DNA from: Candidatus Bathyarchaeota archaeon
GTDB lineage: Archaea > Thermoproteota > Bathyarchaeia > Bathyarchaeales > Bathycorpusculaceae
Direction: 5' to 3'
Assembly: GCA_963832745.1 (NCBI GenBank)
Contig: CAWHVC010000002.1
Location: 96,001 to 160,000, forward strand
Length of the DNA stretch: 64,000 nucleotides
Under the pieces are notes generated by a model. The model was given only the letters and a program-made list of their open reading frames with translations. It was not told the origin of the DNA and did no database searches. Both the position numbers and the translations under genes were made by a program. The first letter of the stretch is position 1. Each line of letters opens with the position of its first letter. Shown here one piece after another: positions 2,015 to 22,907 of the stretch.

Positions 2015-2017
2015 ACG

Positions 2018-4650: not shown

Positions 4651-5133
4651 TTACCAAGTTCCAGCTCTATCAGACCCATATATGCCACTTCTGCGCTTAG
4701 CTTTCATCGATTCAAGCAATATTTTTTGATAGTAACATTTGGGGCAAATTCCATTATTTCCATCATAGTAAGTATTAGTTATTGGATTTCCGCAATTCAT
4801 ACAAAATATGATATTTTCCACGATTGGTGTCTCTTTCTCTGGCACTTCGTTTTGGTCAATTTCATTAGAAACTGAACTGTTTTCAAGCGGCGTGGGAGCG
4901 AATATCTCTGTAATTCTCTCACGACCAGTGTCTTTTATCAACCGTTTTTCAACAAACAAGTTTGCAGGTATAAGATTCTCATGTTTGAGGTGTTCAATAA
5001 TTTTTTTTACCCGTGCTATTGGTAGATTGGTGCCAGCAGCAATTTGATTGATTTTAAATTCTGGATTATTTTTTAAACAAATGTATACTCTTCCGCAGTC
5101 CTCGAAATCTTGAACTGTAATTTGGGGTGCCAA
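4651..5133 (-). CDS. Hypothetical protein with HTH-like N-terminus and C-terminal zinc ribbon
   Basis: CMNCG...CPKC; HTH-like INQIAAGTNLPIARVKKII. Confidence 0.5.
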   Translation of the reverse strand: MAPQITVQDFEDCGRVYICLKNNPEFKINQIAAGTNLPIARVKKIIEHLKHENLIPANLFVEKRLIKDTGRERITEIFAPTPLENSSVSNEIDQNEVPEKETPIVENIIFCMNCGNPITNTYYDGNNGICPKCYYQKILLESMKAKRRSGIYGSDRAGTW

Positions 5134-5324
5134 CCCTTAAACAACCTTCTATTTGATTGTTATTATTTTTATTTATAAACTTATAAAACTATGCAATATT
5201 GTGTTATTTTATATAGTAATTATGAACAGTAATTGTGATTTGATATGTATTAGTGCCAAATTTTTCTTTAACGAAAGATTCATCTATGATGAAATACAAC
5301 TAACAAAAAGCAAGGGGTTATTAC

Positions 5325-6257: not shown

Positions 6258-6923
6258 AGGCGTCTCCATTTTTACAGAGCGACTCGTTTTTTGGTGGTCC
6301 AGAAATAAACGTCATTTCCCTTGGCGAGAAACAAATAACGCTTATGATATTCTTGTAGCTGAAATTTTACTTCATCGCACCAAAGCATCTCAGGTTGCAA
6401 AGTTATATCCTGAATTTTTGTGTGCTTTCCCAACTCCGCTGTCTTTGGCCGAGGGAGCACCCGATAACATTAAAAAAATACTTAACCCTTTAGGACTGCA
6501 TTGGCGTACCAAGCTAATTCATTGTATGGGTAAGGAAATTATAGAAAATTTAATGGAAGAATTCCTGAAGAAAAAAGTTTGTTGATGTCGCTTCCAGGCG
6601 TCAGCGATTATATTTCTTCGGCAGTTATGTGCTTTGCATATAATTACAATGTACCCCTTCTTGACACAAACACTGTACTAGTCATAGGACGTTTTCTCGA
6701 GATTAAAACAAATGACGGATCACGGCGAAGTAATCAATTTAGAAGGGCTTACTTGCAATTATATGATCAAACTAAGGCTACACCTAGGGAGTTCGCCTTT
6801 GCAATAATAGATTTTGCAGCACTTGTATGTTTACCCAAGAATCCATTATGCGACAAATGTGTAGTTGGCAGTATCTGCATGTACAAATCAAATATTGATA
6901 ATAAGAAAGAGGCGCTATTATGA
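6250..6923 (+). CDS. mig: Mig-type T:G mismatch DNA glycosylase (HhH-GPD, 4Fe-4S); one frameshift near 6548
   Basis: FPWR, EILLHRT (Mig EILLRRT; MutY EVMLQQT), LPGVSDY, and C-x6-C-x2-C-x5-C. No MutT-like C-terminal domain. Confidence 0.75.
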
Positions 6924-9900: not shown

Positions 9901-10837
9901 GTATACTTCTTGCCCATCAATAGACGATTTTTGGACGTTAACAGGATACTTTAACGCCATAAGAGAGCTAGGTGGTGCAAGGGCTTTGTATAGACAAGAC
10001 ATTCCTCAAAGAATTTATGCTATAGCGGAAAATGAGCGCCAACCACCTCGTAATTTAGATGACAGCAATGTAATTGAATTGTCTAGTAGAGGTAACTCGA
10101 ATGATCTTCCCGCAATTCTTCGAATTTTAGAACAAAGTTGCTATCCAAACGCTCCTGATGCATTATTCACTACCTCTATGTTTGGAACCGGCATTGATGT
10201 ATCGCGAATTGGTTTAATGATTGTAAATGGACAGCCAAAAACTACTTCCGCATATATACAATCTACAGGACGTGTTGGTCGCAAAAATGCTGCTCTTGTA
10301 GTAACATTTCTCAGAGCTTCAAGACCACGTGACCTTAACCATTATGAATTCTTTGAAGGGTATCATAGTCAACTTCATCGGTATGTTGAGCCCACGACTG
10401 TGTATCCGTTCTCTCCCGGTGCACTTGAAAGAGCCTTAGGCCCAGTTATGGTTTTCATCCTTAGAAATATGCGAACATGTGCTATTGAATGGAGTGATTC
10501 AGAAAGCGCTCATAAAATGGATACTGCACTAACCACTTGCATAGAAGTTAAAAGATTGCCGGATATATTTGAGACTAGAGCTCAAGGTCAACCGAAACAC
10601 CGTAAGCCTATGCCGACTATTGTTCAAAAACTCGCTCAATCAAGACTTGCATTATGGCAATCAATTGCGGTTATTACAAAACAAAATCTAAAGTACAGCG
10701 AATATAATCAGGTTGAAAAACACGTCGTTTTAGGTGATTATAGACATCTTCACTCTCTCAAAGAAGTAGTGTACAAAAATGCGCCACAATCTCTGCGAGA
10801 TATTGAAGAAACAACTGGATTCCAAACAAGGGGATAA
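6920..10837 (+). CDS. drmA: DISARM DrmA-like SF2 helicase
   Basis: PTGTGKTEAY, RYTLRLLTIQQF, QDELHLIEGPLGS, STATI, QSTGRVGR; 1305 aa, followed by DUF1998 and PLD genes. Confidence 0.9.
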   Translation: MREKLVTELVKEVLGPRTNDIREKMVLSPVTEFITGVLAPQGAREIPTIDDDLEIPVEDTQNYEGETADSDVDALPVFQPALYPKSKPSTIGLSFVIRHNGEPRIDVCLTWARYKGIINKNGKVSEWRREPKFFVQSIQLLKTTVIFIDTLGRICDKNNAEISLHIVTNPLSNDTRLVHLYFVNELPNPPSESEITSEDCIFQPQIRVCKGNTELTQGIRKKPAGSEEKTLDFLYRNRPILSRGHLCSAVWRDIDPQTPKKCKLTYPECAGEIPFFWIDGPILTEYGLSEKQKHFSECDVRTEFIPLYALANPDLEWPKEFKRVPELKASALSETWNIGELQSAFYPIIQELQQWIDELEQKSKDYLEDDKALAIDLIAECKAANSRIADGIALLCNNEEARLAFCFANKAIALQATWGKKKEFVWRPFQIAFILMTIESIFNSKSKHRSTCDVLWVPTGTGKTEAYLALIAFAIALRRRNALLNSNQELTGAGVSVITRYTLRLLTIQQFRRTLSMITACEYLRVHNLGARSSVGWRPINSAKKGDFIWGSTPFSCGLWVGGSVSPNRLSDLYIRKTNQYISGALSILKGNRGEGEPAQVLTCPACGEILAVPEMGLSTGNHQIHLIIKHEKGDIRLIIPALSDKSFGNAKIVGPPRVFELESQSYYTLTLTLAVTGSFSTKDLDAFWEKILTIIEKNGVKLELAPIKASRNGYFEKKTEGSKKGYDFEIFCPSPSCELNRIWVGGLPAGSIADNSPRNFAPHPDGHTIPCFPDGNRLVDIQMPFRKAGNLHISNRIPIPALTVEEQVFSKLPSVVVATVDKFARPPFNPQAAGFFGNVDAHNSVHGYFRKTTWLSSQAKTQKLIYQLSPPNLIVQDELHLIEGPLGSLVGLYETAIDFLSSETNKNPVKYVASTATIRSAHDQTMAIFHRSLQLFPPRGLDASKRFFITEKDTHVLDDSSAGRLYLGICAPGRGPLTPLVRIYSRLLFTVGTYTSCPSIDDFWTLTGYFNAIRELGGARALYRQDIPQRIYAIAENERQPPRNLDDSNVIELSSRGNSNDLPAILRILEQSCYPNAPDALFTTSMFGTGIDVSRIGLMIVNGQPKTTSAYIQSTGRVGRKNAALVVTFLRASRPRDLNHYEFFEGYHSQLHRYVEPTTVYPFSPGALERALGPVMVFILRNMRTCAIEWSDSESAHKMDTALTTCIEVKRLPDIFETRAQGQPKHRKPMPTIVQKLAQSRLALWQSIAVITKQNLKYSEYNQVEKHVVLGDYRHLHSLKEVVYKNAPQSLRDIEETTGFQTRG

Positions 10838-10839
10838 AT

Positions 10840-12660
10840 ATGGTACAACAAATTCGTGGATCTCAATTCATAGTAACCTACGGGCCCGGATCAATAATTG
10901 AAGGAATAGAGGGCCCAAGGGTAATTCCTAGATCAGATATTGCACTATTTTCAAATTCACTTGTGCCGAAAAATTTTGCATTATCTGATCAAAGAATGTC
11001 AAAAGGTCTATTAGACGGCGCGAATATTTATCGACTGCCTTCTAATGCTGAACTCGGTAAACAAGATTCGATGCCTATTTACCATACAAAAGCTTTTCCA
11101 ACATGGAGACTTTGTCTTAATATTAATAACCATGCAGGACCTTTTTACATTTTACATCAAACTTTCAGCTGCCCTGTCTGTGCAGGCTTAAAGGATAATT
11201 CGCATTTTAGTAACCGTGGATCTGAACCTATACGGTTTGTTAGAGCCTGCTCGGCTGGTCACATGGATGAGGTTGATTGGGCGTATCTTGCACATGGAGG
11301 CGACAAAAGCTGTAGTAACCATAAGGTGTTTAATTGGTATGGCGGGGGAGGTTCTCTTTCCAAGGTTATAATTGAATGTCCCGAATGTAAAAGAAAATCT
11401 ATTACTCTTGGTAGAGCTTACGGGCAGGACTGGTATTGCTCGGGGCGTTATCCAGAGCGCGAACAGCTTGGAGACCGAGTTCAACCACCGTTTGACTGCA
11501 ACCGCAAAGCAAGAATTGTTCAAAGACAGGCATCTAATCTTCGAATACCTGAATTAAAAACGCTCTTTGCTATTTATCCACTTCATACAAAACTGCATGA
11601 ACATTTACAGGCTGATCCAATTTATTGGAATTTGATAAATAAAATTCCATCTGAAGCTGAATTTAGGCAATTGTTAAAAAACCTTGAGATTAAAGGTGCC
11701 GTTAAAAAGCAAGTAATCACTGAAATTCTTAACTGCCCTTGGCAAGAAATTCGGACCGCTATTGATGATATCCTTAGAGATATTCCCAGCTCATATCACG
11801 AACTTATAAAAGAGGAGTTTCAATCTTTAAATGAGGGATCTGTAAAAGGAATCCCGCCAATCAGGGGACCGACACCAAAGTCACCTGTACTCATTGAAAT
11901 TAATCCCAAGTTAGTTAATCCCTGTCATGGTCCGAATAATACCTCTTTTAGAATCACGCCTGTACTTACCCTTACAACAGTAACTGTGCAAACGGGGTAT
12001 CGCCGTGAGGTTTATACTAAGAGCTTGCCCACCCGAGGTTTAGCAGAACTTGTAGATATTTCATTCCCTGACCCCTTCGACGATAGTAAGAAATGGTATC
12101 CTGGTGTTCAATATCTTGGTGAAGGCATTTTTATAACATTAGAAAACGCAAAGACATTCATATCAAATAGCAATGCTGTAAAAGCTTGGATGAATGCCTC
12201 CGATAATAATTCATTATATCCAGATCACGTATTTAGAGACCAACTGTTTAAAGAAGAACTACACCCGGGCTTTGTTTGGTGGCATACTCTTAGCCATCTT
12301 CTCATCAGAGAAATTGCGTCAGAAGCTGGATATTCATCTTCAGCAATCAGAGAAAGAATCTATCTCGAAAACACAGACATGGCCTGCGGCGGAGGTATAC
12401 TACTTTACGCAACACAACCCGGTAGCGAAGGAACACTTGGTGGTTTAACAGCACTTGTTCCTCATTTTCAAGAAATGCTTGACAATGCATTTAACCAGCT
12501 TCAATCTTGCTCTTCTGACCCTTTATGTGTTCAGCATACTTTCAAACTCGGAGATTACAATGGTGCTGCTTGTTATGGCTGTTTGCTTTTATCGGAAACT
12601 TCATGCGCCCACCGTAACATGTGGCTAGACAGGAACATTATTTTGGAGAACTTGCCTTGA
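10840..12660 (+). CDS. drmB: DISARM DrmB-like DUF1998 protein
   Basis: IRGSQFIVTYGPGS, HTLSHLLI...GYSSSAIRERIY, CSSDPLC, GAACYGCLLLSETSC. Confidence 0.9.
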   Translation: MVQQIRGSQFIVTYGPGSIIEGIEGPRVIPRSDIALFSNSLVPKNFALSDQRMSKGLLDGANIYRLPSNAELGKQDSMPIYHTKAFPTWRLCLNINNHAGPFYILHQTFSCPVCAGLKDNSHFSNRGSEPIRFVRACSAGHMDEVDWAYLAHGGDKSCSNHKVFNWYGGGGSLSKVIIECPECKRKSITLGRAYGQDWYCSGRYPEREQLGDRVQPPFDCNRKARIVQRQASNLRIPELKTLFAIYPLHTKLHEHLQADPIYWNLINKIPSEAEFRQLLKNLEIKGAVKKQVITEILNCPWQEIRTAIDDILRDIPSSYHELIKEEFQSLNEGSVKGIPPIRGPTPKSPVLIEINPKLVNPCHGPNNTSFRITPVLTLTTVTVQTGYRREVYTKSLPTRGLAELVDISFPDPFDDSKKWYPGVQYLGEGIFITLENAKTFISNSNAVKAWMNASDNNSLYPDHVFRDQLFKEELHPGFVWWHTLSHLLIREIASEAGYSSSAIRERIYLENTDMACGGGILLYATQPGSEGTLGGLTALVPHFQEMLDNAFNQLQSCSSDPLCVQHTFKLGDYNGAACYGCLLLSETSCAHRNMWLDRNIILENLP

Positions 12661-13133
12661 CAGAAGCTGAAATAATTGGAACTGGTGTTGAATTTCTTCG
12701 AACCGGAATAATGGGCATGGAACCCACCATTATATCCTTGATTACCGAAGCTACTACTGAAATTCAAATAATGGCTTACGTATTTACTGAAAGTGCGCTT
12801 CCGATACTTAATTTACTTGAAAAACAAGCTTCCAAAGGTATACTGATCACAATAATAGTTAACGATCTTAATTCGCAAAGACGAGTGATAGTATCAAAAC
12901 TAAATGAAATAACAAAATATCCAAAAGTCAAGATAGTTGATTTTGTTGATAAAAGAAAAAGGCAATTGCATGCGAAGGTTCTGGTTATCGATAGAATGAA
13001 AGCCTTAGTAGGTTCTGCTAATTTTACTTGGGGCGGTATGCTAACAAATTATGAGGTCGGGATAAAAGTGGAAGGAGAACTGGCTTGGAAGCTGGCTAAA
13101 CTTGTAGATTCATTAGCTTATCAAGATACATGA
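12621..13133 (+). CDS. drmC: DrmC-like phospholipase D-family nuclease (true start probably near 12657)
   Basis: LHAKVLVID...GSANFT HKD motif, directly after drmB. Confidence 0.85.
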   Translation: MARQEHYFGELALTEAEIIGTGVEFLRTGIMGMEPTIISLITEATTEIQIMAYVFTESALPILNLLEKQASKGILITIIVNDLNSQRRVIVSKLNEITKYPKVKIVDFVDKRKRQLHAKVLVIDRMKALVGSANFTWGGMLTNYEVGIKVEGELAWKLAKLVDSLAYQDT

Positions 13134-13203
13134 TTTCTTTAAATAGAATACAGATAACTTTTCCATTCTAAGCAACCTGACCGTTAGTGAGCAAATTGCT
13201 ACC

Positions 13204-13341
13204 TGCAAGGGTTTCAGAAGATTGGCGGGTAGAGAAAGAGACTGCTTGTTGTTATTTTGTATTGTTTTATATCTGATGATTAGCCAATTTACAGCAAACT
13301 TCTTTCTACTATACCTTATTTATTGAAGGCCTTTTACAAAC
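13204..13341. repeat. Dispersed intergenic element, copy 1
   Basis: Contains GAAAGAGACTGCTT, TCTGATGATTAG (13272-13283) and TTTATTGAAGGCCTT (13319-13333). Confidence 0.8.
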
Positions 13342-13388
13342 ATTAATTTTTTAACTTTACAATTGAGAAAACGGTAAATAGAGAATGC

Positions 13389-13970
13389 GTGAAACAGTTA
13401 ACCATGGTTAATATATTTGGGTATGGTGAGGATGCCTTAACCTTATGGCTGCTGAAAAATCAATCGGAAGTAATTCTTCAGCGATTCAATGATAAAACTG
13501 AGCTTTCTGATTGCCTCGCGTTTTATCGGCCGAGCTTTGGCAGAAGCGGTGGTCCCGGAAATGCTGAATTCGGTGAGTTCGATGCTATCTTGGCATCCAA
13601 AGAAAAAATCTACCTGATCGAGAGCAAGTGGGACAATCATCGACAGACTAGCGGGACTGAACTCTTTTTGCGACCTGAACAAATTGAGCGCCATGAGGTA
13701 TTCAGGTGGTATCTGTGTAATTGGAATAAATCTGACCAAACTGCATTCATCGAAGGAAAGAAGATAGCTCCGTCAGACAGTCTGCTATTTAGGAATCTCC
13801 AACATATCCTGAGCCATTTGGCCCAGTGCTGCCCGAACTCTGGAAACCTTGATCACATAAAGAATGTCTTGCTTTACTTCCATGGGTCTAAGTCAAGTCC
13901 GCCCCAAAAAGTCTCAGAAGGGTTCACAATTGTGCCTATAGAATACGAGGGTAATTATGTCGACCTGTGA
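13389..13970 (+). CDS. Putative PD-(D/E)xK nuclease
   Basis: GEFDAILASKEKIYLIESKW catalytic-like motif. Confidence 0.6.
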   Translation: MKQLTMVNIFGYGEDALTLWLLKNQSEVILQRFNDKTELSDCLAFYRPSFGRSGGPGNAEFGEFDAILASKEKIYLIESKWDNHRQTSGTELFLRPEQIERHEVFRWYLCNWNKSDQTAFIEGKKIAPSDSLLFRNLQHILSHLAQCCPNSGNLDHIKNVLLYFHGSKSSPPQKVSEGFTIVPIEYEGNYVDL

Positions 13971-14047
13971 AAAGTTGAAAAATCGGTGTTTCCCAAAAGA
14001 GATAAGACTGACAAGCAGGTTAGCATTTGAGGAGGTTATGGTGACGC

Positions 14048-14632
14048 GTGTGGAAATATGGAACCTTAACTAATGAAGAACAGCTTCGAGTGAGAATGAT
14101 TGTTGATATGAGCCTTGGTTGGTCTGCGATGATGCGTGTATTTGAGAAAGACTCAAAAACAACAATAAGCAAAAAAATAATGGCCGACTTTCTTGAGAGA
14201 ATTTTCAACTGCGAATCAAAGCTCGAGTTCGACAAGCTGCATAATGAGTTTTGTGAATGGGGAACAGCGAACATTAGGCAGACAAGATCCAAAGAAAAGG
14301 CAAGTTATGGGCAGATCGCAAAGACTCTGGATGTTCTCCTGAAAGTAGCAATTTATTATTGTCATCTGCCGGATTGTCAACGAAGCAAAGAACTCTGTGG
14401 CTTGGTCAATGCTGCTGTAGATAATGCGATGATGAAAGACCTTAGAAAGCAATTCAGCATCAAATCTTCAAGTTGGCCTGATTCCTTAAAAGACGTCGGC
14501 AAGGCAGATTACTTAAGAATCCAGAAGTCGGTTAAAGAGTCCATAAGATTGAGCCATAATGATTCAATCAGCTGTCCCGAATGGGATGATATTCACTGGC
14601 AAATGGCAAACAATAAGTCAAAAGGGCAATAG
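14048..14632 (+). CDS. Hypothetical protein
   Basis: 194-aa ORF with a good upstream RBS (GAGGAGG); motif SYGQIAKTLDVLLK...AAVD. Confidence 0.6.
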   Translation: MWKYGTLTNEEQLRVRMIVDMSLGWSAMMRVFEKDSKTTISKKIMADFLERIFNCESKLEFDKLHNEFCEWGTANIRQTRSKEKASYGQIAKTLDVLLKVAIYYCHLPDCQRSKELCGLVNAAVDNAMMKDLRKQFSIKSSSWPDSLKDVGKADYLRIQKSVKESIRLSHNDSISCPEWDDIHWQMANNKSKGQ

Positions 14633-14881
14633 AATAAAGTGCTTAAAAATCGACGATAAGTGGCTCAAGCTAATATTTGCACAAAGAAAGGGATGGGAAA
14701 TCAGACGTACACCAACAAACTTCAGGGCAAAATAGCCCTCGGAAACACCAAGACCAAGAATTATGAAGGCTATGCCACAATCATTGATTGCAAGGAAATC
14801 AGCGTCAATGACCTGAAAAGGTCTGGCGATAAGCACCAAGCCTCGTCGAAACCTTTATGCGGTAAATGGGGCAATAACTGA
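14633..14881 (+). pseudogene. ASCH (PUA-like) domain remnant
   Basis: IKCLKIDDKWLKLIFAQRKGWEIRRTPTNFR, then after a frameshift GKIALGNTKTKNYEGYATIIDC. Confidence 0.6.
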
Positions 14882-14885
14882 GGGC

Positions 14886-16122
14886 ATGCCGAAAAATAAG
14901 ATTGTGAATGTGCAGGCAATCAATCAGATAAATGATAATAAAAAACTGAATGCTAAACAAAAAAAGGTCATCATTGAAAATTTTGGTAAACCTTCAGATA
15001 CACCTGATGAATTTCTCAATTCTTTCTTCCCAGCCAGCCAAGAACAATTTCTTGAAGGATTTGGATTTTTTCCGTTTGCAGTAAAAGAAGACGCCCTATG
15101 CTTCCTGATAGATCTGCAACTTGCTGAAAGGATACATTCATTGCCTGTAGAGACACGCTACCGTAATTTAGCATTATCTTATTTGCAGCAATCGAAGAAA
15201 AGAGAAAATAAGTACGCCCTTGTTGGAAGAACCATAAGTAAATTATGGACCCAATCTTCTAAAAACCCCCGTATGTTAAAAAATTCTCCCAAGTTTGAGA
15301 AAGTATTGCAGAACATTCCCGATATGAAATACCGAGATCATTTTATTCACTCCCTCTATGTTTTTCTTATGGGTCACTACATAATAAACCGGCTAACTGA
15401 AAGCCATGATTTCAATTCTACCGATGTCAATTTAACCTGGATGCTCACGTCTACTTTTCATGACATTGCTTACCCAATCGAAAGGATACATCCCTTGCTT
15501 AATTCTGTTCTTGGATATTTTATGGGAACCAAAACTAAAAACTATATTGACATAAAAGCAATTTTGCCTGAGATTTACTACGATTTTATGAGACACATTT
15601 GTTCTTTTAACCAAAATCCGATTGTAAGAGCGCATTCTATTGACATTCGATCGTACGATTTGCCCTTATACAAGAGACTCAAACTTGAGTTAATCAAAAA
15701 AAATCACGGAGTACTCAGTGCACTAATTCTGGCGAATGATTTGGCAGTTAGACAAAGATTTCTCAATTATGGAGATGGTGAGAATTTCTTCAATATGCAT
15801 TTACCCGCTTGTCATGCTATTTGTTTACATGCAATAAAGGAAGAGAGAATAAATTTTGAGACACATCCATTTGCTTTCCTTTTGGTTTTATGTGATGAAC
15901 TTCAGGATTGGGGTAGACCATCTCAGCAGGAAGCTAGAAATAATATTTGTAAAAGATATTGAAGTAAAAAGCCAAGAAATCCCAGAAATTCATTTTACTA
16001 TTTATGCATCTCCGGGGAAGCGAGAAAATCTAATAAAAGTTTTATCGACGCGCCTTGTTACCTCATCAAAAATAAAGATTTTTATTAATGAAGTTGAAGG
16101 TAGTCAAATACTTTCTCTTTAA
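14886..16122 (+). CDS. HD-domain metal-dependent phosphohydrolase; probable frameshift near 15930
   Basis: RDHFIHS, FHDIAYP, NHGVLSA, AICLH, LCDELQDWGR. Overlapping ORF 15856-16122 supplies the likely C-terminus. Confidence 0.75.
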
Positions 16123-16492
16123 TATAGATTCTCAAGGCTCATATGAACATGTTTTCATACTTTCTTCAGTTGCCCACTCTGGCATTTGAAGCCATGATTT
16201 TTTCAAATAATATCAATTTTTTAATTTTATAGTTGCTACTAATGAGAGAGCTTTCTTTTTTTTCAATTTTTGTGCTCTTGAATCGGAAAGGTAATCCTTA
16301 AAGTAGGTGTTTACTATAAATAAAAAAAAGTTAAGTTATGGCAGCAAACATGCCCTCAAAGCGCCTTTTGTCAGAGCTTTCCCTTTTCAAGCTCAGTTAT
16401 TTCGGCTGGTTTCCGCGCCTGTCACCTGAAGGCTTGCCTGTCGTGCTTGGATAGTTTGGGGCCTTTACTTTTGCCCAAATCTTTCACTCTTG

Positions 16493-16750
16493 TTACAGTT
16501 CAAAAATGAATTGGTTGGTAGAACTATCTTTTTGAACGCTTGTCAATCTTAATTCTCGAACTAAACTAACACTATAAGCGTTCTGTAACTTTTGACCTCT
16601 GAGCACTTCACAAATCAAGGGCATTCTGCTCTTTAGTCTCATTCGATTGTGAACTTCACCTGATACTATGGTCAATTCTTTTGTTCCTGAAGCTTTCGCC
16701 GGCTTGAAATAGTTATTAAAGATGTATTGCCTTACTTCTTCGGCTGACAT
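16493..16750 (-). CDS. Small conserved hypothetical protein, possibly DNA-binding
   Basis: 85 aa with TIVSGEVHNRMRLKSRMPLICEVL; TATA-like sequence upstream. Confidence 0.6.
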   Translation of the reverse strand: MSAEEVRQYIFNNYFKPAKASGTKELTIVSGEVHNRMRLKSRMPLICEVLRGQKLQNAYSVSLVRELRLTSVQKDSSTNQFIFEL

Positions 16751-16830
16751 TGATAACCCTTGAGCCTCTATTCCAATGTTTAAGTATAAGTAATTTGGCT
16801 TAAGGAAATCTGCGCCTTAAGCTATAAGCT

Positions 16831-17823
16831 ATGATGCCTAATGGGATAAGCATTAAAAGCGATATAGCGATATCCAGCTTAGGGGATACCGCATTGGTAA
16901 ATTTGCTTATTCCATACCGCCCAATGATTAAACATAGAGATCCGTTACTTGGAGAGTTTACATACGGTGACAGTAATGCCCGAGCTCAAAAGCTAAAAAA
17001 GGATCTTCAAAAAGGTGATTACGTTTTCTTTCACACTACAATCAGAGGGTTGAGGTATATTACTGCTTATTACGTAATTGACAGAGTTCTTGATACTGCT
17101 GTAGCTGCTTCTAATCAGGACATCGCCAGTAAATACAAAAATCCTCACATCATAGAATACCTAAAAGGAAAACGGCGTGAGGAAGCTGATGTTGTTATTT
17201 TTGGGGATCCGATTCTATCGCAAGAACTAAAAAGACCTTTGCCGTTCACCCAAGAACTTGCAATGAAACTCTCGCTTGGAATTGAGTTTAAGAAAGAGTT
17301 TACAGAGAATCAATGTATTGGCTCTTCAACACGTTCATGGAGAGTTTTAGAGAAAAGTGATGTTAAAGTACTCAAGGAAGAAATCTTGAATATTAAAGAA
17401 ACTATTTCAAAGGATACTATCATATCAACTGATGAAGTAATGGAAATCTTGGAAGCAGACCTTGAAGGGTTTATCGTCAGCAATCCGCAAATATTAGGAA
17501 CCAAATTAAAACTTGAAAAAAAACAAGAGCCCACCCAAGATGGAAGAATTGACCTAGTTTACAAAGATGAAACTGATAATTTTGTCATAGTGGAACTTAA
17601 ACTCGGAAGTATCGGGACAGCCGCTTTAAACCAATTAAGAAGATATATTCATTGGTACAAAAATCAGACGCATAAAGAGGTTAGAGGCATTATCGTTTGC
17701 AAGGATATTATGCCAGCGTTCGAAGAAAATTATGGAAAGCTAACAGATATCAAAGTACTCTGCTATGGGTGGAAACTCGCTGTCTATCCGTATACCTTTA
17801 CACTACGCCGCAGTGAAGGCTGA
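16831..17823 (+). CDS. Nmad3-like domain fused to a NucS/EndoMS-type PD-(D/E)xK nuclease
   Basis: N-part HRDP...FTYGD...LQKGDYVFF; C-part LEADLE...GRIDLVYKD...IVELK...QLRRY. Confidence 0.7.
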   Translation: MMPNGISIKSDIAISSLGDTALVNLLIPYRPMIKHRDPLLGEFTYGDSNARAQKLKKDLQKGDYVFFHTTIRGLRYITAYYVIDRVLDTAVAASNQDIASKYKNPHIIEYLKGKRREEADVVIFGDPILSQELKRPLPFTQELAMKLSLGIEFKKEFTENQCIGSSTRSWRVLEKSDVKVLKEEILNIKETISKDTIISTDEVMEILEADLEGFIVSNPQILGTKLKLEKKQEPTQDGRIDLVYKDETDNFVIVELKLGSIGTAALNQLRRYIHWYKNQTHKEVRGIIVCKDIMPAFEENYGKLTDIKVLCYGWKLAVYPYTFTLRRSEG

Positions 17824-17937
17824 TAGTAAAGAATTGTGTGCGACCAAGCCAGCTTGTTCACTTTTTGCCAATTAGCAAGAAAGAGGAGACTGGCGAATTA
17901 TGCCTCGACACTTTTTCCGATTCCCACAATAAAAAAC

Positions 17938-18085
17938 GTTTGTAAGGCTTTCAATCGATTAACCGGTATAGAAAGAGACTGCTTATGATTATTTTATTTT
18001 GTTTTATATGTTCTGATGATTAGATAATTTACTGAAGACCTGCCTGCCTCCCTCTATACCCCCTCATTTATTGAAGGCCTTCAAC
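17938..18085. repeat. Dispersed intergenic element, copy 2 (best-preserved terminal inverted repeat)
   Basis: AAGGCTTTCAAT (17944-17955) and ATTGAAGGCCTT (18070-18081); internal GAAAGAGACTGCTT and TCTGATGATTAG. Confidence 0.8.
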
Positions 18086-18175
18086 TTGTTCTATGTCAAG
18101 GGATTTTCGAGGCAGTCATTAAGCGTAAACTCTATAAGATACTTAGTATTTTACAAAATCTATGGAGTTAAAAGT

Positions 18176-18478
18176 TTGGGGCGTACTATTGGTATTGATG
18201 ATAAGACTTACAAGGAATTGGTCAGGGTTACCGCTGAGTTAATGCAGAAATCAGGCGAGCAAGTCGCGCTCAGTGATGTCCTGCGACTCTCTGTATTTCT
18301 GCTTAAAGGGTGTCTCTCAAATTACCCAGAGCTTGAAAAGCAAATCCTGAACCAAATCAGCTTTGAGGACCAGCAACCATCAACAAAAGACTTACTTTCA
18401 AAAGATATAACGCCTGAGTGGTTTGGCAAAGACTTTCTGGACTGCATCTTTGGCGTGGGAGATGAAAGAGGTGCTTAA
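18176..18478 (+). CDS. Ribbon-helix-helix / antitoxin-like small regulator
   Basis: TTG start after GGAG; RTIGIDDKTYKEL...SDVLR pattern. Confidence 0.5.
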   Translation: MGRTIGIDDKTYKELVRVTAELMQKSGEQVALSDVLRLSVFLLKGCLSNYPELEKQILNQISFEDQQPSTKDLLSKDITPEWFGKDFLDCIFGVGDERGA

Positions 18479-18761
18479 TTTGGAGGACAAAACCAGAGCG
18501 CTTGAAAATAAATTAGACGACCTTCTATACGAGGCACGCAAACTAGAGGAAGGCGATGCAAAGAGGCTTATTGAGCAAGAGATCCGAGAAATATTCAATG
18601 TGCTGCAAAACTTTTATGCCGGCAATAATTGGCATCCTGTAAACTTCAAACAGGCTATGGAGGATCATTCGGAGCGTAAAATGACTATCAGTTGCATAGA
18701 GCTAACAATGAAACATGATATCGCCGGAAATGTTTTAGATTGGATGTCAAGAGGGAAATAA
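18423..18761 (+). CDS. Hypothetical protein (start probably 18462-18471)
   Basis: ORF tightly coupled to its neighbours. Confidence 0.5.
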   Translation: MAKTFWTASLAWEMKEVLNLEDKTRALENKLDDLLYEARKLEEGDAKRLIEQEIREIFNVLQNFYAGNNWHPVNFKQAMEDHSERKMTISCIELTMKHDIAGNVLDWMSRGK

Positions 18762-18762
18762 T

Positions 18763-19110
18763 GTGCCAAGCGCGTTTCAGACGGCTTATCAAAGCAAGAG
18801 TAAAATGCTGGAGGATGTGCGGCTTTTATTGGGGCTAAGCAGAGAGGAGTTGGTTTCAACTTTGACGTTGTTGGAGAAGGCGGACTATGGAAGTCTGCAG
18901 TTTGCTCGGGGGCGTACAGGAATTCGCTTTCAAAGCTTTCCATCAACGCATTCCGTTTACAGTGATGTTAGCGTGGAAATAGAGTCGGCGGGAGAGGGTG
19001 TTAAGCAGACAGTGGAATATCAGATTCCCCGATCAGTGCTTAAACTATTTAGAAGAGCGAAAAAAGACAAAGTGCAAGATGGCTTGAATAGCAAAGCGGT
19101 AAAAGTCTGA
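18763..19110 (+). CDS. Hypothetical protein
   Basis: ORF starts 1 nt after the previous stop. Confidence 0.45.
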   Translation: MPSAFQTAYQSKSKMLEDVRLLLGLSREELVSTLTLLEKADYGSLQFARGRTGIRFQSFPSTHSVYSDVSVEIESAGEGVKQTVEYQIPRSVLKLFRRAKKDKVQDGLNSKAVKV

Positions 19111-19189
19111 TACTGCTGGAGAGACAAATGTTACGAGTTTAATGGTTGAAAGATTATTTTGCCGCAATGTGGGCAGTTAATGATTCTTA

Positions 19190-19696
19190 CTATTCTATTA
19201 TTATTTTCCTGACAAGGCCTAAGAGTTCAAGTGTACAACCATAGTCCTGTGGTCGAGTAAACATGTTTTCTTGTGCAATTTCTTTTGTTCTCATTTCTTG
19301 ATATCTTGGAAGAAGGTGAAAATGGAAATGTTCGGTTGTGTTTGGCAATTTCTGCCCCCTTTTCCATTCTGAATTAATCTCCTTAGGTTCCCAGTGTTCG
19401 CACATAGTCATAACATATACTTTCTCGGCTTTTAGCGATTTTTTTAATTTTTTTGTTGTTTTAACTAAAATTTCCCCGAGACTTCTTGATTCTTCTTCAG
19501 TTAGCTCTGTAATGTCATTTGCATCTCTTTTTGAAATAATTAATGTATGTCCTGTAACTTTGGGATGCAAATCTAAGATTACAAAGAAATGCTCGTTTTC
19601 GCCAACCCAGCGATTCTCTCCTCCATTCCCTTCCCTGAATTTCTTCAGGTCTTTTGCCATATCACAAAATACACAAGATTCAGAATGCATTTGCAT
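19190..19696 (-). CDS. HIT family hydrolase
   Basis: CVFC, LDLHPKVTGHTLII and the HFHFHLLPR histidine triad. Confidence 0.9.
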   Translation of the reverse strand: MQMHSESCVFCDMAKDLKKFREGNGGENRWVGENEHFFVILDLHPKVTGHTLIISKRDANDITELTEEESRSLGEILVKTTKKLKKSLKAEKVYVMTMCEHWEPKEINSEWKRGQKLPNTTEHFHFHLLPRYQEMRTKEIAQENMFTRPQDYGCTLELLGLVRKIIIE

Positions 19697-19707
19697 CAAC
19701 ACTCTTG

Positions 19708-20133
19708 TTAAAATGAAGCCCCGCAATGAGGACATTTTTCTAATGTTTCGATATAAGTGTGTTTGCAGTAAGGACAACGAACTTTAACAATTACTTCTTT
19801 TTCTTTAATGATTTCTCGGATAGAAACAATGTTAGGCGATTGTTCAGACGTATTTGTTTTCGTTATAGCCAACTTTTGCCAAAATTCAGGTTCATACTCT
19901 TTTTTAAGCAAGTCTTTCCCCTTTCCATCCATATTTGAGTTGACAAGTTCAGCACCTACAAGTTCTCCCATGCTGTAGTGAAGGAACCATTTTGCTTGGC
20001 AGTTTTGGCACAATAAATTACTTTTACGAAATCCAAAAGATTTTTTCATCGAATTTTCTTTACCACAGAAAGGACACTTTTGGAAACTATTCTTTAATCT
20101 GGATTCGAATAACTCATCCTCAAGTCTACCCAT
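19708..20133 (-). CDS. Multi-zinc-ribbon protein
   Basis: CPFC, CQNC, CPYC, CPHC. Confidence 0.7.
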   Translation of the reverse strand: MGRLEDELFESRLKNSFQKCPFCGKENSMKKSFGFRKSNLLCQNCQAKWFLHYSMGELVGAELVNSNMDGKGKDLLKKEYEPEFWQKLAITKTNTSEQSPNIVSIREIIKEKEVIVKVRCPYCKHTYIETLEKCPHCGASF

Positions 20134-20446
20134 TTTCTAAATCGAGCCCACTCGCTTCTATGATAATTCTAGAATTCTAATAAGTTTTGCGAAACCGCTG
20201 ATATTGATAATTAAAACCTTTAGAACCAATTAGCTGTAAATACATTGTTTACCGATCTAAAGAGATGAGTGGTCAACTTTTCCTTGTTTAAAAATGAACG
20301 CTTGCGAGTGATGCCTCGACAGCTTTATGAGCTTGAATCGGAACATCTGCTCTTTTCAAATCCTTGCTCATGGATGACTAAAGAAGTCTTGTCTTGATTG
20401 GTGAATTTAAATTGTTAGCTAAAATGAGGTATACACGGTTGGGGCA

Positions 20447-20583
20447 AAGGTCTGTCGCCAGTTGCCCCCTATGGAATAAGAATGCTTCTAAATTTATATT
20501 ATTTTTTTTTATGTTCTGATGATTAGCTTATTTATTTAAAACCTATTCGTTTCCTAATATACCCCCAGTTTATTGAAGGCCTT
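20447..20583. repeat. Dispersed intergenic element, copy 3 (left part degenerate)
   Basis: TATGTTCTGATGATTAG (ends 20526), TATACCCCC and TTTATTGAAGGCCTT (20569-20583). Confidence 0.75.
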
Positions 20584-20681
20584 TATGCCCGAAATCAACG
20601 TACATCGTGCGGGCAATGCTTTCTTGTTAACACCACAAATTACTTATCTCTAAAATGTCATAAAGAGCCGTGTGATGGCTA

Positions 20682-21293
20682 ATGGTAAATTATCCTCCAT
20701 ATGTCGACGCTTATGGAAAATTAGAAACTCTTTTCGAGAAAATAAAAGAAGCTGAGGTTCCTGTGAAAGTTACAAACGATTTCTTGCAAACAAAACTCGG
20801 CTTGAAATCCACGAGTTATAGAGCGATGATTCCGCTCATGAAGAGATTGGGTTTTATTGACGAAGCTAACGTTCCGACAGAGGAATATAGACAATATCGA
20901 GATGACAGTCAGTCGGGAGCTATTATGGCTCAGCAGATCAAAGGAGCTTACAAGGATCTTTTTGCTGCTAATGAATATGCGTTTAAATTGAATAAAGACG
21001 ATGTAACAGCAAAACTCAACACAGTTTTAGGAACTCCGGCAAACGACCCAATTACGCCTAAAGTCGCTAGCACCTTTTTAGCCCTATGCGCTTTGGCTGA
21101 CTTTGAAGGGAAAGTTTCGTCACTGCCGAAAACTCGAGAGAATATTGGAAAACCTAATGAGGGCTTTTCACAAGTTGCACTCCCAAGGCTTGGACTCTCT
21201 TACACTATTAACTTGAATCTTCCGGCTACCACTGAAATTGAAGTTTTCAACGCTATTTTCAAGGCTCTTAAGGAGAATCTGCTTAGTGAATAA
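20682..21293 (+). CDS. DUF5343-like protein
   Basis: PY...G.L..LFEKIK.A..P.K.T.DFL...LG...LGFID...PT..Y, with C-terminal YTINLNLPATT...FNAIF. Confidence 0.7.
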   Translation: MVNYPPYVDAYGKLETLFEKIKEAEVPVKVTNDFLQTKLGLKSTSYRAMIPLMKRLGFIDEANVPTEEYRQYRDDSQSGAIMAQQIKGAYKDLFAANEYAFKLNKDDVTAKLNTVLGTPANDPITPKVASTFLALCALADFEGKVSSLPKTRENIGKPNEGFSQVALPRLGLSYTINLNLPATTEIEVFNAIFKALKENLLSE

Positions 21294-21888
21294 TGAAAGC
21301 CCTCGTGAGAAACAGCTACAAATTTTTGGCTTTAAGAATTTAGTTTTAGAAGGAGAGCTCGCCAAGTTAGAGCGGTCTGGGATTGAGATCGGTCACGTCG
21401 AGACTGTTAAAGAAAAGAATGAACTTGTTGATACTGATCTATTTGAAAGCGAAATTTTGCATAAAGCTAAAACGATGGCTGACTTCTACATCCTCTATTT
21501 TAGCTTGGAAAATAGTGTTCGAAAACTAATCACCGACGTTCTCAGCGAAAAGCATGGAGCTGATTGGTGGGAAAAACGGGTTCCTGACGGAGTAAAAACA
21601 AACGTAAAAAAATTGCAGAAAGAGGAACTGCAGACTGCCATGACGATCAGATCAGATGACAATTTGGCTTACACAAACTTTGGAGAACTTATCGACATTT
21701 TCTGTCACAATTGGGCTGATTTTACTGAAATTTTAAGAAGTCAAAAGGCTGTTCGAGATACTCTTTCCCAATTTAACAACATAAGAAATGTGATAGCGCA
21801 TAGCTGTGAACTCAGCGGCGATGAGATTCAAAGGTTCAAACTTGTGATTAAGGATTGGCAGCGAATCAGCAATAATAGCGAAGCCTAA
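21286..21888 (+). CDS. Swt1-like HEPN domain protein (putative RNase)
   Basis: YFSLENSVR...GADWW..RVP, YTNFGEL and the HEPN Rx4H motif RNVIAH; GTG start overlaps the upstream gene. Confidence 0.8.
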   Translation: MNNESPREKQLQIFGFKNLVLEGELAKLERSGIEIGHVETVKEKNELVDTDLFESEILHKAKTMADFYILYFSLENSVRKLITDVLSEKHGADWWEKRVPDGVKTNVKKLQKEELQTAMTIRSDDNLAYTNFGELIDIFCHNWADFTEILRSQKAVRDTLSQFNNIRNVIAHSCELSGDEIQRFKLVIKDWQRISNNSEA

Positions 21889-21998
21889 CGTTTCTAATTT
21901 GAGATCCGTCTCGCATCCTTTAAGAGCATCTTTTGAGAATCCTCGATTTTTTGATTTTTCAACAATGGATCGTATTTTGGTCTGGAATCGAGAATCGC

Positions 21999-22907
21999 TT
22001 AAGTCTTTTTGTCATTATCCATTTCTTCCAAGGCCTGCAAGGTCCGTTCCTTTAGCTCCTTTATTGCCGGGGAAAAGTAGTGTCTTACGAATATGCTTGG
22101 CGGGATTCTGCCACACAATAAATCGGCTTCTTGGGCTACGAGTCCGTGCCTGATCATGAAGGTGCCGTAATAGTCCCGCAGTTCGCTGGTTCGGGTTTTG
22201 ATTTTGCGTCTTTGCAATTTTTTGGTTATGGCTGCATAAGTTACCGGTTGGCTGCTCCCGATTTCGACGATAAGGCTTTCGGGTATTATGCTGATGAAGG
22301 CATTTTTTGTTCCGCGTAGAAATGTGCTTTTGTATCTGAAGTGCTCAAGGATCCCTGTTTCAGCGCTAAGGTACTCATGCAATCTTCCTTTATTTGACAG
22401 CTCGATTATCAGGTTGAAGCTTTCAATGCCCTCGCCGCATCGTAGCCCTGTCAGCTGTAAGAATTTCAACAGTAGATTCTCCTCTGGCGTCAAAATTGGC
22501 TTGACCTCGGCGAACCATTCATCCAAGTTGCTATTGGTGTTGCTGTAGATTCTAACAAAAGCGGCAAGCGCGTCTGGCTGTTCTGTTTGATTCCGTAGCT
22601 TTTCAGGGCAGCTTTGAATTGCTCGTAGCACCCGATGTATTTTGAGATTATGATCAGGCTTTTGATTGCTCCCGATCTAGTGGTTGATGGGACAGCATTG
22701 AGTTGCCCGATGTTGCCTGATTCGAGGATTTGGTAGTAGCGGTTGGCGTAGCACATTACTCTTTTTGCGGTGGTTTTTCTGTATTTGTTTTGGACGTAAT
22801 TTTTTGAATTCGGGCCAATTAAAGGCTTTAAAGCTCATTGGCTCAATGATTTGGGCGCCTTGGTAAGGTAATGGTCGCGGGTCCAAATCCCGCCGAAGGC
22901 TCCACAA
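21999..22907 (-). pseudogene. int: SSV1-type tyrosine integrase, Int(C) portion, with two frameshifts (~22800, ~22585)
   Basis: Three overlapping ORFs join into one protein with TGLRCGE, TKNAF, ELRDY, LLCGR and RHYF. Its N-terminus is the antisense of the tRNA half. Confidence 0.8.
22858..22904 (+). other. att site: 3' half of tRNA-Thr(GGT)
   Basis: CCTTGGTAAGG anticodon loop, T-arm GCGGG-TCCAAAT-CCCGC, ends GGCTCCA. No D-arm or 5' acceptor strand upstream. Confidence 0.8.

Follow-up and report, generated by a model that had tools for sequence, protein, structure and literature searches.

A co-oriented repeat at putative cassette junctions in tRNA-integrating islands and other variable regions of one Bathyarchaeia genus

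A repeated DNA element of ~145 bp, herein called E, is found between small gene modules of a tRNA-Thr-integrated island in a Candidatus Bathyarchaeota archaeon and forms co-oriented arrays in its relatives. The reading favored here, to which about even weight is given, is that E is a cassette-junction element at which modules come, go, and shuffle, being integron-like in effect but not an integron. On the best reading, E arrays belong to tRNA-integrating islands and other variable regions of one Bathyarchaeia genus. E is a double-stranded DNA element, and its symmetric boxes are putative protein-binding sites. A preliminary description of this DNA had proposed a boundary of defense cassettes, integron-like but not of the attC type, with a MITE, a portable promoter, or a structured RNA as further options. 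The cassette boundary fits best, given the arrays, the varying genes, the independent flanks, and the placement relative to tRNA and integrase, whereas the specific link to defense did not hold. Positions given without a contig refer to the window, i.e., the whole stretch of 64,000 nucleotides that was analyzed.

The repeat and its three copies at tRNA-Thr

All three copies in the window are co-oriented, as had been noted; they lie on the + strand and are recovered by alignment, nhmmer, and cmsearch: E1 at 13202..13337 (75 bits in nhmmer; 67.9 bits and an E-value of 2.3e-19 in cmsearch), E2 at 17938..18085, and E3 at 20438..20588, with 13204 and 20439 as alternative starts of E1 and E3. They are ~145 nt in length with a mean column identity of 74%, E1 being the most diverged and lacking 3 nt before TCTGATGA in the alignment. 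A profile made from E1-E3 and run on the whole 3.02-Mb assembly returns these three copies only, in agreement with the earlier statement that the host part of the window holds none. Motifs said to be shared are indeed present. TCTGATGATTAG occurs exactly three times in the window against 0.29 expected (three were reached in 0 of 100 shuffles), and the three matches of TTTATTGAAGGCCTT in the window are all exact, although two mismatches were permitted. GAAAGAGACTGCTT is common to copies 1 and 2, and the ends of copy 2, AAGGCTTTCAAT and ATTGAAGGCCTT, form an inverted match at 11 of 12 positions. Two further motifs had been described upstream of copies 2 and 3; ATGCCTCGACA lies only there (17900 and 20311; 0.02 expected), whereas the 9-mer CCAATTAGC, present at 17868 and 20226, is not above chance (19 matches at one mismatch vs 17 expected).

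E has two inverted arms of ~35 bp. In each of them lie a palindrome of the AAGGCCTT type, a tract of G or C, and an ATAG box, and a further AAGNCCTT-like site at the center brings the total to three AAGNCCTT-type palindromes per copy. The near-invariant core is TTTTATAT-GTTCTGATGATWAG. Of 173 copies, 148 have a TATA-like box, which adjoins a near-invariant 14-nt block; this block reads exactly TCTGATGATWAG in 94 of the 173. In E2, going from left to right, these parts are the left arm AAGGCTTTCAAT..GGTATAGA (17944-17975), the TATA-like TTTTATAT (18002-18009), the invariant block GTTCTGATGATTAG (18010-18023), the center GAAGACCT (18034-18041), and the right arm CTCTATACCCCC..ATTGAAGGCCTT (18052-18081). 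The arms match at 26 of 35 positions at the consensus level, with 70.8% of arm cells complementary; E thus has terminal inverted repeats, as MITEs do. Some copies (15 and 10 of 176 for the two sides) bear a further palindrome, GTACATTG, beyond the arms. Retention of core and boxes in 173 otherwise diverged copies points to selection.

The three copies all occupy the last 9.7 kb of the part of the window (1..22857) that belongs to a 25.3-kb element at tRNA-Thr (G000:C2:93537-118857, G000 being this 3.0-Mb genome). The full tRNA-Thr(GGT) gene (G000:C2:93460-93536) lies 2.5 kb ahead of the window start, and a perfect copy of its 3' part, attR (22858..22904, + strand, 100% over 47 nt), is located directly upstream of the integrase start codon. 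With a PF16795 tyrosine integrase and a 47-nt direct repeat at ends 25.3 kb apart, the island is a tRNA-integrating element. Its integrase gene (21999..22838, - strand) is convergent with the array and is a pseudogene with frame changes and one internal stop; compared with the intact protein of the relative G020, it is 67% identical and contains one TAG. PF16795 is the sole family it matches at E <= 0.01, unlike integrases of the IntI type (PF00589 plus an IntI-specific extra domain), and among the 120 listed of 153 integrase relatives, most carry a precomputed PF16795 assignment and none another family. With the E3 module in between, the integrase has lost its fusion to an E. A remnant of an integrase 3' end (18068..18112, - strand), identified by comparison with intact integrase ends, is fused to the right arm of E2. 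It reads ..RKSLDIEQVEGLQ and stop (~13 codons), with the stop codon inside the right arm; intact integrases of relatives end in ..KSLEEMDVKGLQ or ..LNALKGLQ before their stop, overlapping the terminal E. From the TATA box rightwards, E2 is 92-94% identical to the integrase-linked copy of the relative G028, compared with 42% in the left part.

Defense modules account for only part of the region. A DISARM-type module of DrmA, DrmB, and DrmC (6920..13133, + strand) ends with drmC 69 nt before E1, the other side of which is occupied by a four-gene module of unknown function. Between E3 and the integrase lies PDC-M34A/B, a candidate defense pair of DUF5343 and a Swt1-like HEPN protein (20682..21888, + strand). 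For the genes between the copies, PADLOC matches are absent or merely weak; the claim that E separates defense modules therefore stands upstream of copy 1 and downstream of copy 3 but not in between. The next + strand ORF starts 52 nt past copy 1 and 94 nt past copy 3, and a likely + strand gene start is found ~90 nt past copy 2. With three copies, the array is small; with a broken integrase, it is probably frozen.

Arrays in relatives

A profile scan of relatives, as suggested at the outset, revealed a genus-confined family with varying genes between the copies. E occurs in 68 of 120 genomes of one Bathyarchaeia genus, where the copy number reaches 52 per genome, and in 0 of 145 genomes from other genera in a sample of the class. 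From 71 sources, 208 copies were collected. A word taken from the host flank matched no metagenome contig. Neighboring copies less than 6 kb apart are co-oriented in 129 of 133 pairs and opposed in 4. The 85 gaps between copies measure 108-5496 nt, with a median of 797 and a 90th percentile of 3215 nt. In clustering co-oriented sites around cassettes at spacings under 4 kb, E arrays are like integrons. They hold unrelated small genes on both strands. The first ORF past E shares the strand of E in 39 cases and lies on the other strand in 37, with Pfam-supported genes also pointing both ways, and E arrays thus deviate from the mostly promoterless, array-directed ORFs of integron cassettes. Most cassettes encode nitroreductases, small regulators, Alba, DUFs, and similar proteins, which are not defense-specific; small winged-helix regulators (HTH_45) are frequent. 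Six half copies contain the right arm only, their start falling within model positions 96-108; each of them opens its array, and a tRNA gene or fragment adjoins four of them. In every segment of E, neighboring copies are no more similar than random pairs, and the arrays are therefore drawn from a common pool rather than made by local duplication. Copies scattered genome-wide with target-site duplications, or an invariant gene order among relatives, had been named as findings that would speak against a cassette array; both were looked for, and neither was found.

The order of tRNA-Thr, array on the tRNA strand, and convergent PF16795 integrase is seen in seven genomes (G000, G016, G028, G085, G099, G101, and G107), the integrase being only 42% identical in G101 and a fragment in G099. 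The tRNA 3' copy beyond the integrase was directly seen in G000, G016, and G028. In G009 and G016, where the last E was read directly next to the integrase, the integrase stop codon falls within the right arm of this E. Extra DNA lies between the integrase 3' remnant and the integrase gene in G000 (at E2), G020, and G112, and a remnant fused to an E is seen in G000 and G020; in the latter, the ~100-bp integrase 3' end is duplicated on both sides of a 676-bp insert. E is also present in every one of the 19 genomes whose integrase reaches 65% identity to the E-linked clade. At this identity, the integrase is absent from 49 of the 68 E-positive genomes, and 19 of 31 sources tested for it contain neither gene nor fragment. 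A Pfam scan of 18 of these 19 integrase-less sources showed no shared recombinase or transposase beside the arrays. The proven site of the integrase is the tRNA-Thr repeat, not E, and this, like the integrase-less sources, weighs against the favored reading.

The two sides of E assort independently. Among 5,671 pairs formed by 107 copies, 96 share the downstream flank only, 42 the upstream flank only, and 6 both, such that 138 of 144 flank-sharing pairs have just one side in common; the pairs behind these flank counts and the neighbor counts above do not represent independent events, and loci were picked for holding E. The identity of the left part is 0.72-0.76 with a shared upstream flank vs 0.60 in the background, and that of the right part 0.79-0.83 with a shared downstream flank vs 0.65-0.70. 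This flank-linked gain is modest, which counts against a cassette junction. Copies are mosaic. In two arrays of G016, a 100%-identical segment starts exactly at the center motif CC|TTCTTCC; at the right end, it stops ~25 nt short of the next E, and the other locus lacks an E at this place. A cassette common to G085 and G086 spans from center to center. In G101, the near-identity of one pair sets in ~20 nt beyond the right arm and continues until about position 68. Change-points are concentrated at 64-72 and at 100-110. Breakpoints lie at ~64-72, at 93-113, and outside E, with three pairs only (87-100% identity) recent enough for detailed reading, and no single crossover point was found among those examined. 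One precise junction would be expected of a dedicated site-specific recombinase, so breakpoints at several positions in or near E do not establish such a mechanism. A like pattern is expected from homologous recombination within the invariant block of 25 nt, which also weighs against the cassette-junction reading.

Proposed mechanism and alternatives

We infer that the arrays are built by recombination at E. An E-bearing module would recombine in Campbell fashion with a resident E, the crossover falling inside or beside the invariant core (model positions ~65-113), whereby genes between two copies would be added, removed, or swapped. Such a crossover would necessarily yield co-oriented, hybrid E copies, and the arrays would then lengthen within the island, flanked by its tRNA end on one side and its integrase end on the other. 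A role of the PF16795 integrase as the enzyme acting at E is doubtful and rated low, given that a very similar pattern could arise by host homologous recombination between the conserved cores. Equally tentative is the fuller proposal that E is a double-stranded, sequence-specific site at which this integrase, together with host bending proteins, captures, excises, and reorders cassettes within a small tRNA-Thr-integrating element. In the circular form of the element, the integrase would be divergent both from a half-site and from the cassette array, as in the layout of an integron. If this proposal were true, the system would be an archaeal counterpart of the integron that evolved independently, with an unrelated integrase and an unrelated, hairpin-less site that may bear a promoter. 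To our knowledge, the PF16795 family integrates whole elements only; action on E would add a second, cassette-level activity.

A portable promoter is rather unlikely. E would then be a repeated regulatory module only, i.e., a TATA promoter, possibly bidirectional, with palindromic operators for a shared regulator and set between accessory modules, and shuffling would be a by-product of homologous recombination between the copies. The TATA-like box with the near-invariant block beside it agrees with this, as do the three palindromes per copy together with the HTH_45 regulators common in cassettes. The right-hand unit of mosaic copies, moreover, starts ~25 nt downstream of the box, and archaeal transcription is expected to start ~25 nt downstream of a TATA box. 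However, the box is too far from the genes. Relative to start codons in this genome, the peak of TATA-like words is at 26-50 nt upstream and that of Shine-Dalgarno-like words at 11-15 nt upstream, whereas the box of E is at least ~120 nt away from the nearest downstream start (~75 nt remain to the end of E, and at least 46 nt follow) in 36 of 39 cases; the remaining three mechanical ORF starts are 0-19 nt from the end of E. At such a distance, each gene has space for a promoter of its own. Of the next genes, about half face away, and AAGGCCTT is no general operator word (20 occurrences in the genome, 3 of them inside E). A promoter also gives no account of co-orientation whatever the gene direction, of the half copies, or of the overlap with the integrase stop. 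The chances are lower for a non-autonomous, MITE-like transposable element, with cassettes being the genes between chance insertions in variable regions. Size, inverted terminal arms, and AT-rich center are those of such an element, as are the 1-52 copies per genome on many contigs, the restriction to one genus, and the outer palindrome of some copies. No target-site duplication is seen, though, the longest flank-shared word in 108 copies being equal to the permuted control, and the strict co-orientation of neighbors is not that of chance insertions. In silico, 0 of 178 empty sites were found in a low-power search of the fetched loci and the window's own genome, and a genus-wide search with the array region of the window gave no case of flanks joined without an E. 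The mosaic copies have internal breakpoints and are not whole-element units, the IS elements inside one array (L022) have unrelated ends, and no shared transposase is found near 18 arrays.

It is improbable that E copies are passive, now functionless scars of successive island integration or recombination at the integrase end, each island leaving its own integrase-proximal E. Integrase 3' remnants do lie by internal copies (E2 here, G020, G087, and G066), and E2, from its core to its right end, is similar to the integrase-linked subtype; but most array copies are without such a remnant, gaps of 108-400 nt are too small for whole islands, and scars would hardly retain an invariant core and boxes across 173 diverged copies. 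Least of all is E expected to work as a folded single strand, be it an attC-like DNA hairpin or a structured RNA, a reading that is largely refuted in this analysis. The pairing of the arms at the consensus level exceeds that in slid registers (31-54%), and E2 folds arm to arm (z -1.84). Yet there is no covariation (70.8% paired vs 70.6% after shuffling; score 0.153 vs 0.153), and the two arms switch between G and C boxes independently of each other (G-C 44, G-G 40, C-C 8, and C-G 7). Single-stranded DNA folding of eight copies gave z from -2.11 to +1.60 with a mean of about -0.4, and RNAalifold returned no consensus structure. An Rfam scan of 12500-21500 gave a best E-value of 2.5, all matches being far below gathering scores. 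The attC motifs R'' (RYYYAAC) and R' (GTTRRRY) occur singly in the terminal 35 nt of 2 and 2 of 173 copies and jointly in 0 of 173.

Comparison with known systems

E arrays resemble integrons, especially chromosomal super-integron arrays of VCR-type attC sites and CALINs (attC clusters lacking an integrase), those of archaea (Ghaly et al. 2022, PMC9668308) included, in their co-oriented repeats of ~60-150 bp with imperfect inverted ends, which part small, unrelated, and often uncharacterized genes. Further similarities are a tyrosine recombinase that ends some arrays while many have no integrase nearby, and cassettes common to several genomes in differing order. The differences are substantial. 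The E-linked integrase belongs to PF16795 ('archaeal phage integrase') and targets tRNA, unlike IntI; in the integrated form, it is convergent at the far end of the array, and no single crossover point was found. E has neither R''/R' motifs nor structural covariation, and its center is conserved, whereas that of attC is variable. In addition, the genes of E arrays lie on either strand, apparently with their own promoters.

In the Xer-dependent pdif modules of Acinetobacter plasmids and the IMEX arrays found at dif, stackable gene modules are bounded by XerC/XerD sites of 28 bp, whose orientation often alternates. E shares with both the discrete modules at repeated sites, mobile between replicons without an adjacent integrase of their own. 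In contrast to these sites, it is composite and ~145 bp long, and no dif-like 11-6-11 site was recognized in it. Correia elements of Neisseria show target duplications, random orientation, and genome-wide spread. Like these and other promoter-bearing MITEs, E is intergenic, of ~100-150 bp, with inverted ends and an AT-rich, promoter-like center, and is genus-specific, multicopy, and tied to variable regions; unlike Correia elements, it lacks the duplication, is co-oriented in arrays, and is mosaic.

The E-bearing island, with its tyrosine integrase and a 47-nt tRNA 3' repeat at both ends, is otherwise an ordinary tRNA-integrating element of the kind catalogued for Thaumarchaeota, where an intact integrase lies beside the attachment site (PMC6563490); it differs from the summary description of that catalogue by an internal array of a dedicated junction repeat. 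The integrons reported in archaea (Ghaly et al. 2022) are of bacterial type and come from other archaeal phyla, and the route by E cassettes would be distinct from them. Bathyarchaeia are abundant, uncultured archaea of sediment and soil whose genome change is poorly understood. A genus-wide cassette pool joined by one dedicated repeat would be a concrete, testable route to accessory and defense genes in archaea. On the practical side, assemblies break at E copies, E flags variable regions, and its profile can be used to find and catalogue cassettes.

The repeat, its anatomy and its setting in the window

The repeat E is about 145 nt long, and its three copies lie on the plus strand of the window at 13202–13337 (E1), 17938–18085 (E2) and 20438–20588 (E3), as placed by profile and alignment. 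The three stretches can be aligned with a mean column identity of 74% and share their blocks in one order, which agrees with the preliminary description of three related, co-oriented elements. TCTGATGATTAG occurs exactly three times in the 64 kb (0.29 expected), the claimed shared motif TTTATTGAAGGCCTT is likewise found three times, and the ends of copy 2 do form the 11/12 inverted match. Of the words said to be shared upstream of copies 2 and 3, ATGCCTCGACA lies at 17900 and 20311 (0.02 expected); CCAATTAGC is also present there, but is no rarer than chance. The absence of further copies from the host part extends to the whole 3.02-Mb, five-contig assembly, in which E1–E3 are the only matches, both to a profile made from these three and to an improved profile made from 26 copies.

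The anatomy of E was read from an alignment of 111 copies (A3) and one of 173 copies. The left arm, AAGGCCT-TTCGCGAATT-GGGCGG-TATAGA, is followed by an AT-rich stretch, a TATA-like box (148 of 173 copies) and a core with the near-invariant GTTCTGATGATWAG, TCTGATGATWAG being present without change in 94 of 173. After the core come a short variable tract (an A-run in 108 copies, a T-run in 43), the centre motif RAAGNCCTT and the right arm, CTCTAT-ACCCCC-AAATTTTGG-AAGGCCTT, whose consensus matches the inverted left arm at 26 of 35 positions. Three AAGNCCTT sites are present per E. The G/C box of the right arm is found in both orientations (ACCCCC/GGGGGT; 73 C-type, 69 G-type), and the G/C states of the arms are mutually independent (G-C 44, G-G 40, C-C 8, C-G 7). 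Two boxes of 6–7 nt flip exactly, namely ACCCCC/GGGGGT (model positions 112–125) and the A4/T4 tract after the core (95–101), and neither flips in step with the other arm. An outer palindrome, (CAAT)GTACATTG, lies about 14 nt outside the arms, on the left in 15 and on the right in 10 of 176 copies, far above chance for an 8-mer; examples are found in the fetched loci L022 (15939), L021 (12070), L034 (10251) and L143/L144. By their sequence, the symmetric, non-covarying arms look like protein-binding sites, as do the three palindromes and the conserved core. The right end of E, ..CCTTGGTA, resembles the tRNA crossover region CCTTGGTAAGG; because those positions are just 20–50% conserved, this is a weak lead only.

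The window begins 2.5 kb after a tRNA-Thr(GGT) gene (93460–93536 of contig C2 in the window's own genome, G000). A perfect 47-nt copy of the 3' part of this gene lies at 22858–22904, and immediately inside it, on the minus strand, is a PF16795 tyrosine integrase gene (21999–22838) broken by frame changes. The source names of this integrase's relatives place the organism in the archaeal class Bathyarchaeia. From these positions, window 1–22857 is the larger part of a 25.3-kb element at the tRNA gene, and all three copies of E lie within its final 9.7 kb. DISARM (DrmA/B/C) precedes E1. The interval from E1 to E2 contains four genes without family matches and a NucS-like nuclease, that from E2 to E3 five small genes, and a PDC-M34 pair (DUF5343 and HEPN) separates E3 from the integrase. 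A genus-wide nucleotide search gave few or no matches for these cassettes: the gene that follows E1 has counterparts of 70–77% identity in six other genomes, and none was found for the DISARM PLD gene or the PDC-M34 pair. Because the integrase is broken and the copies are only three, this array probably represents a frozen record.

Three further stretches of the island may be described. In its left part (2494–4109), an NsnA/type II restriction-like protein and a weak SIR2 match are defence-like, and no copy of E lies among these genes. Just upstream of drmA (6250–6923), an HhH-GPD/endonuclease III-like gene is divided between overlapping ORFs of 111 and 114 aa and is probably frameshifted. A stretch of about 200 nt between two listed ORFs (14634–14841) is not E. 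It is 73–83% conserved in five or more relatives within the genus (among them G103, G065, G098, G086 and G023) and, judged by eye, reads like a small protein-coding stretch without a listed start codon.

Distribution of E and its arrays

E is a genus-level feature. With E2 as BLAST query, 13 of 36 further genomes of the genus gave matches, against none of 24 genomes of other families in the order. R1, a sequence-only covariance model used for E counts, detects E in 68 of 120 genomes of the genus (GTDB providing one genome per species), and in a class-wide sample E was present only in two of six genomes of this genus and in none of 145 others. A maximum of 52 copies was counted in one genome, several contigs of which start or end within a copy; copy numbers and array lengths are underestimates, because E breaks short-read assemblies. 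Contigs C90, C95 and C122 of the relative G065 begin or end within a copy. In IMG/VR, a 16-nt core word gave 60 single hits, about the chance expectation by our own estimate, and none of these 60 contigs holds a true E by profile. A metagenome scan for same-species strains with a 27-nt host-flank word from beyond the 47-nt repeat gave no hits.

In 70 fetched loci, selected because they hold E, and the window, 208 copies were counted. Neighbouring copies less than 6 kb apart are co-oriented in 129 of 133 pairs, and the 85 gaps between copies in the first 31 sources measure 108–5496 nt, with a median of 797 nt.

Assortment of flanking modules and the position of joints

E fits best as a place where modules are joined, because copies are co-oriented regardless of gene direction, half copies stand at array starts, hybrid copies occur, and the modules on either side assort independently. 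Among 5,671 pairs of 107 copies, a flank (≥75% identity over ≥80 nt) is shared downstream only in 96, upstream only in 42 and on both sides in six, flank-sharing pairs not being independent events; by this measure of sequence identity the modules either side of E assort independently. The left part of E tracks the upstream flank and the right part the downstream flank. In no segment does the similarity of adjacent copies exceed that of random pairs; hence, the arrays are not the product of local duplication, but are put together from a genus-wide pool.

Only three pairs were close enough for a detailed reading of the joints. Two loci of G016 are 100% identical over 1 kb, starting at the centre motif, CC|TTCTTCC (model position ~106); upstream of this point the two copies resemble each other only at family level. 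On the right, the identity stops in one locus about 25 nt short of the next E, and at that place in the other no E is present. In G085/G086, the common cassette spans position ~113 of one E to ~108 of the next. In G101, a 526-bp segment of 98.5% identity begins about 20 nt beyond the right arm, at a (CAAT)GTACATTG box, and ends at ~68 of the next E. Over all pairs, change-points cluster at 64–72, mainly in the integrase-linked subtype, and at 100–110. The joints are thus concentrated in and around the invariant core, and not at one nucleotide. An E-bearing module would insert Campbell-fashion into a resident E, producing two co-oriented hybrid copies, and recombination between two copies would lose the intervening DNA. 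Homologous recombination within the 25-nt core would also fit the spread of the joints.

The other readings offered at the outset fared less well. A structured RNA, or a strand folded for recombination, leaves no signature in covariation, folding, RNAalifold or Rfam: arm pairing is 70.8% versus 70.6% in shuffles that keep column content (score 0.153 versus 0.153), the z-scores for single-stranded DNA folding, computed for eight copies, are spread around zero, RNAalifold on 29 copies gives no consensus structure for either strand, and the best Rfam match in 12500–21500 has an E value of 2.5. Hammerhead and C/D-box readings of CTGATGA were dropped because the partner motifs, inspected by eye in the alignments, are not conserved. 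In line with the initial proposal, E is not attC-type, since none of the 173 copies holds both attC core motifs and every attC and IntI test applied was negative. The archaeal integrons on record combine IntI-type integrases with true attC hairpins, and the available text of the study describing them makes no mention of Bathyarchaeia (PMC9668308); full-text literature searches did not turn up any such repeat or array from this class. Chromosomal integron arrays and CALINs come closest to the E arrays in effect, and an E array is at most a functional analogue of an integron, not a member. An ordinary MITE, the transposon-derived reading, is disfavoured by the strict co-orientation of copies; no target duplication was detected at the copies, none of 178 tested sites was empty (a test of low power), the genus-wide search with the window's array region gave no adjacency of flanks without E, and no partner transposase was found beside 18 integrase-less arrays or through the IS ends in L022. 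Nor does the variable tract behave as a duplicated target, with no excess identity between neighbours (0.472 versus 0.480).

The portable-promoter reading draws on the TATA-like box, which lies about 75 nt inside E. In this genome, TATA-like words peak 26–50 nt before start codons and Shine-Dalgarno-like words 11–15 nt before them, and in 36 of 39 cases at least 46 nt separate the end of E from the start of the next ORF on the same strand. The first ORF after E, with ORFs called mechanically, is on the same strand in 39 cases and on the opposite strand in 37. By distance and orientation, E is therefore not simply the promoter of the next gene. Orientation is family-specific among Pfam-supported cassette genes, in our reading always opposite to E for nitroreductase, the AsnC-type domain and DUF4177, and always the same way for DUF5752 and Alba. 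As a genome-wide operator word, AAGGCCTT has 20 copies, as expected. A promoter or operator role may exist alongside the junction role. The G-tract adjoining TTCC in E resembles an origin-recognition box; this was set aside because arrays of 7–8 copies in 5 kb are unlike replication origins.

Two DDE transposase genes (DUF772 and DDE_Tnp_1) lie inside or beside the array of L022 (4364–5374 and 12529–13977; G016, contig C4). One has 31-nt inverted ends, which are unrelated to the arms of E.

Arrays, tRNA genes and the integrase

A recurrent layout is found in seven genomes, in which tRNA-Thr is followed by an array of one to seven copies on the strand of the tRNA and then by a convergent PF16795 integrase; in G101 the integrase is only 42% identical, and in G099 it is a fragment. 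The tRNA 3' copy beyond the integrase is directly seen in G000, G016 and G028. Where the integrase abuts the last E (read in G009 and G016), its stop codon falls within the right arm (..KGLQ*). Six copies are halves that comprise just the right arm, with their start at model positions 96–108; each is the first element of its array, and four directly follow a tRNA gene or fragment. A circular form of the island would carry, in order, the integrase, a tRNA-like site, the half E, the cassettes and the last E, with the integrase divergent from the array.

Extra DNA parts a 3' remnant of the integrase from its gene in G000 (at E2, about 13 codons), G020 (about 100 bp) and G112, and in G000 and G020 the remnant is fused to E. 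In G020, about 100 bp of the integrase 3' end are present twice, once on each side of a 676-bp insert. The window's E2 bears the remnant ..KSLDIEQVEGLQ* and, from the core rightwards, is 92–94% identical to integrase-linked copies elsewhere; hence, the modules between E2 and the integrase were probably added at that end.

The PF16795 integrase is the obvious candidate for a dedicated enzyme acting at E. E is present in each of the 19 genomes that have a close homologue, which speaks for such a role, whereas 49 E-positive genomes without a homologue at 65% identity or more speak against it. Neither the integrase nor a fragment was found in 19 of 31 sources tested, and a Pfam scan of 18 of these 19 gave no common recombinase or transposase beside the arrays. 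At the tRNA-Thr(GGT) loci of G092, G096, G130 and G128, second copies of the tRNA 3' 43 nt lie 0.6–6.7 kb away, and the integrases enclosed in G092 and G096 are only 38–45% identical to the E-linked one; thus, this tRNA gene is a landing site for several integrase lineages. Arrays of E also start near tRNA-Cys (L025, 18581–18656) and tRNA-Ala (L034, 3312–3388); in L025 a right-arm-only half copy is located about 370 nt after the tRNA-Cys gene, and no integrase was seen in the fetched stretch.
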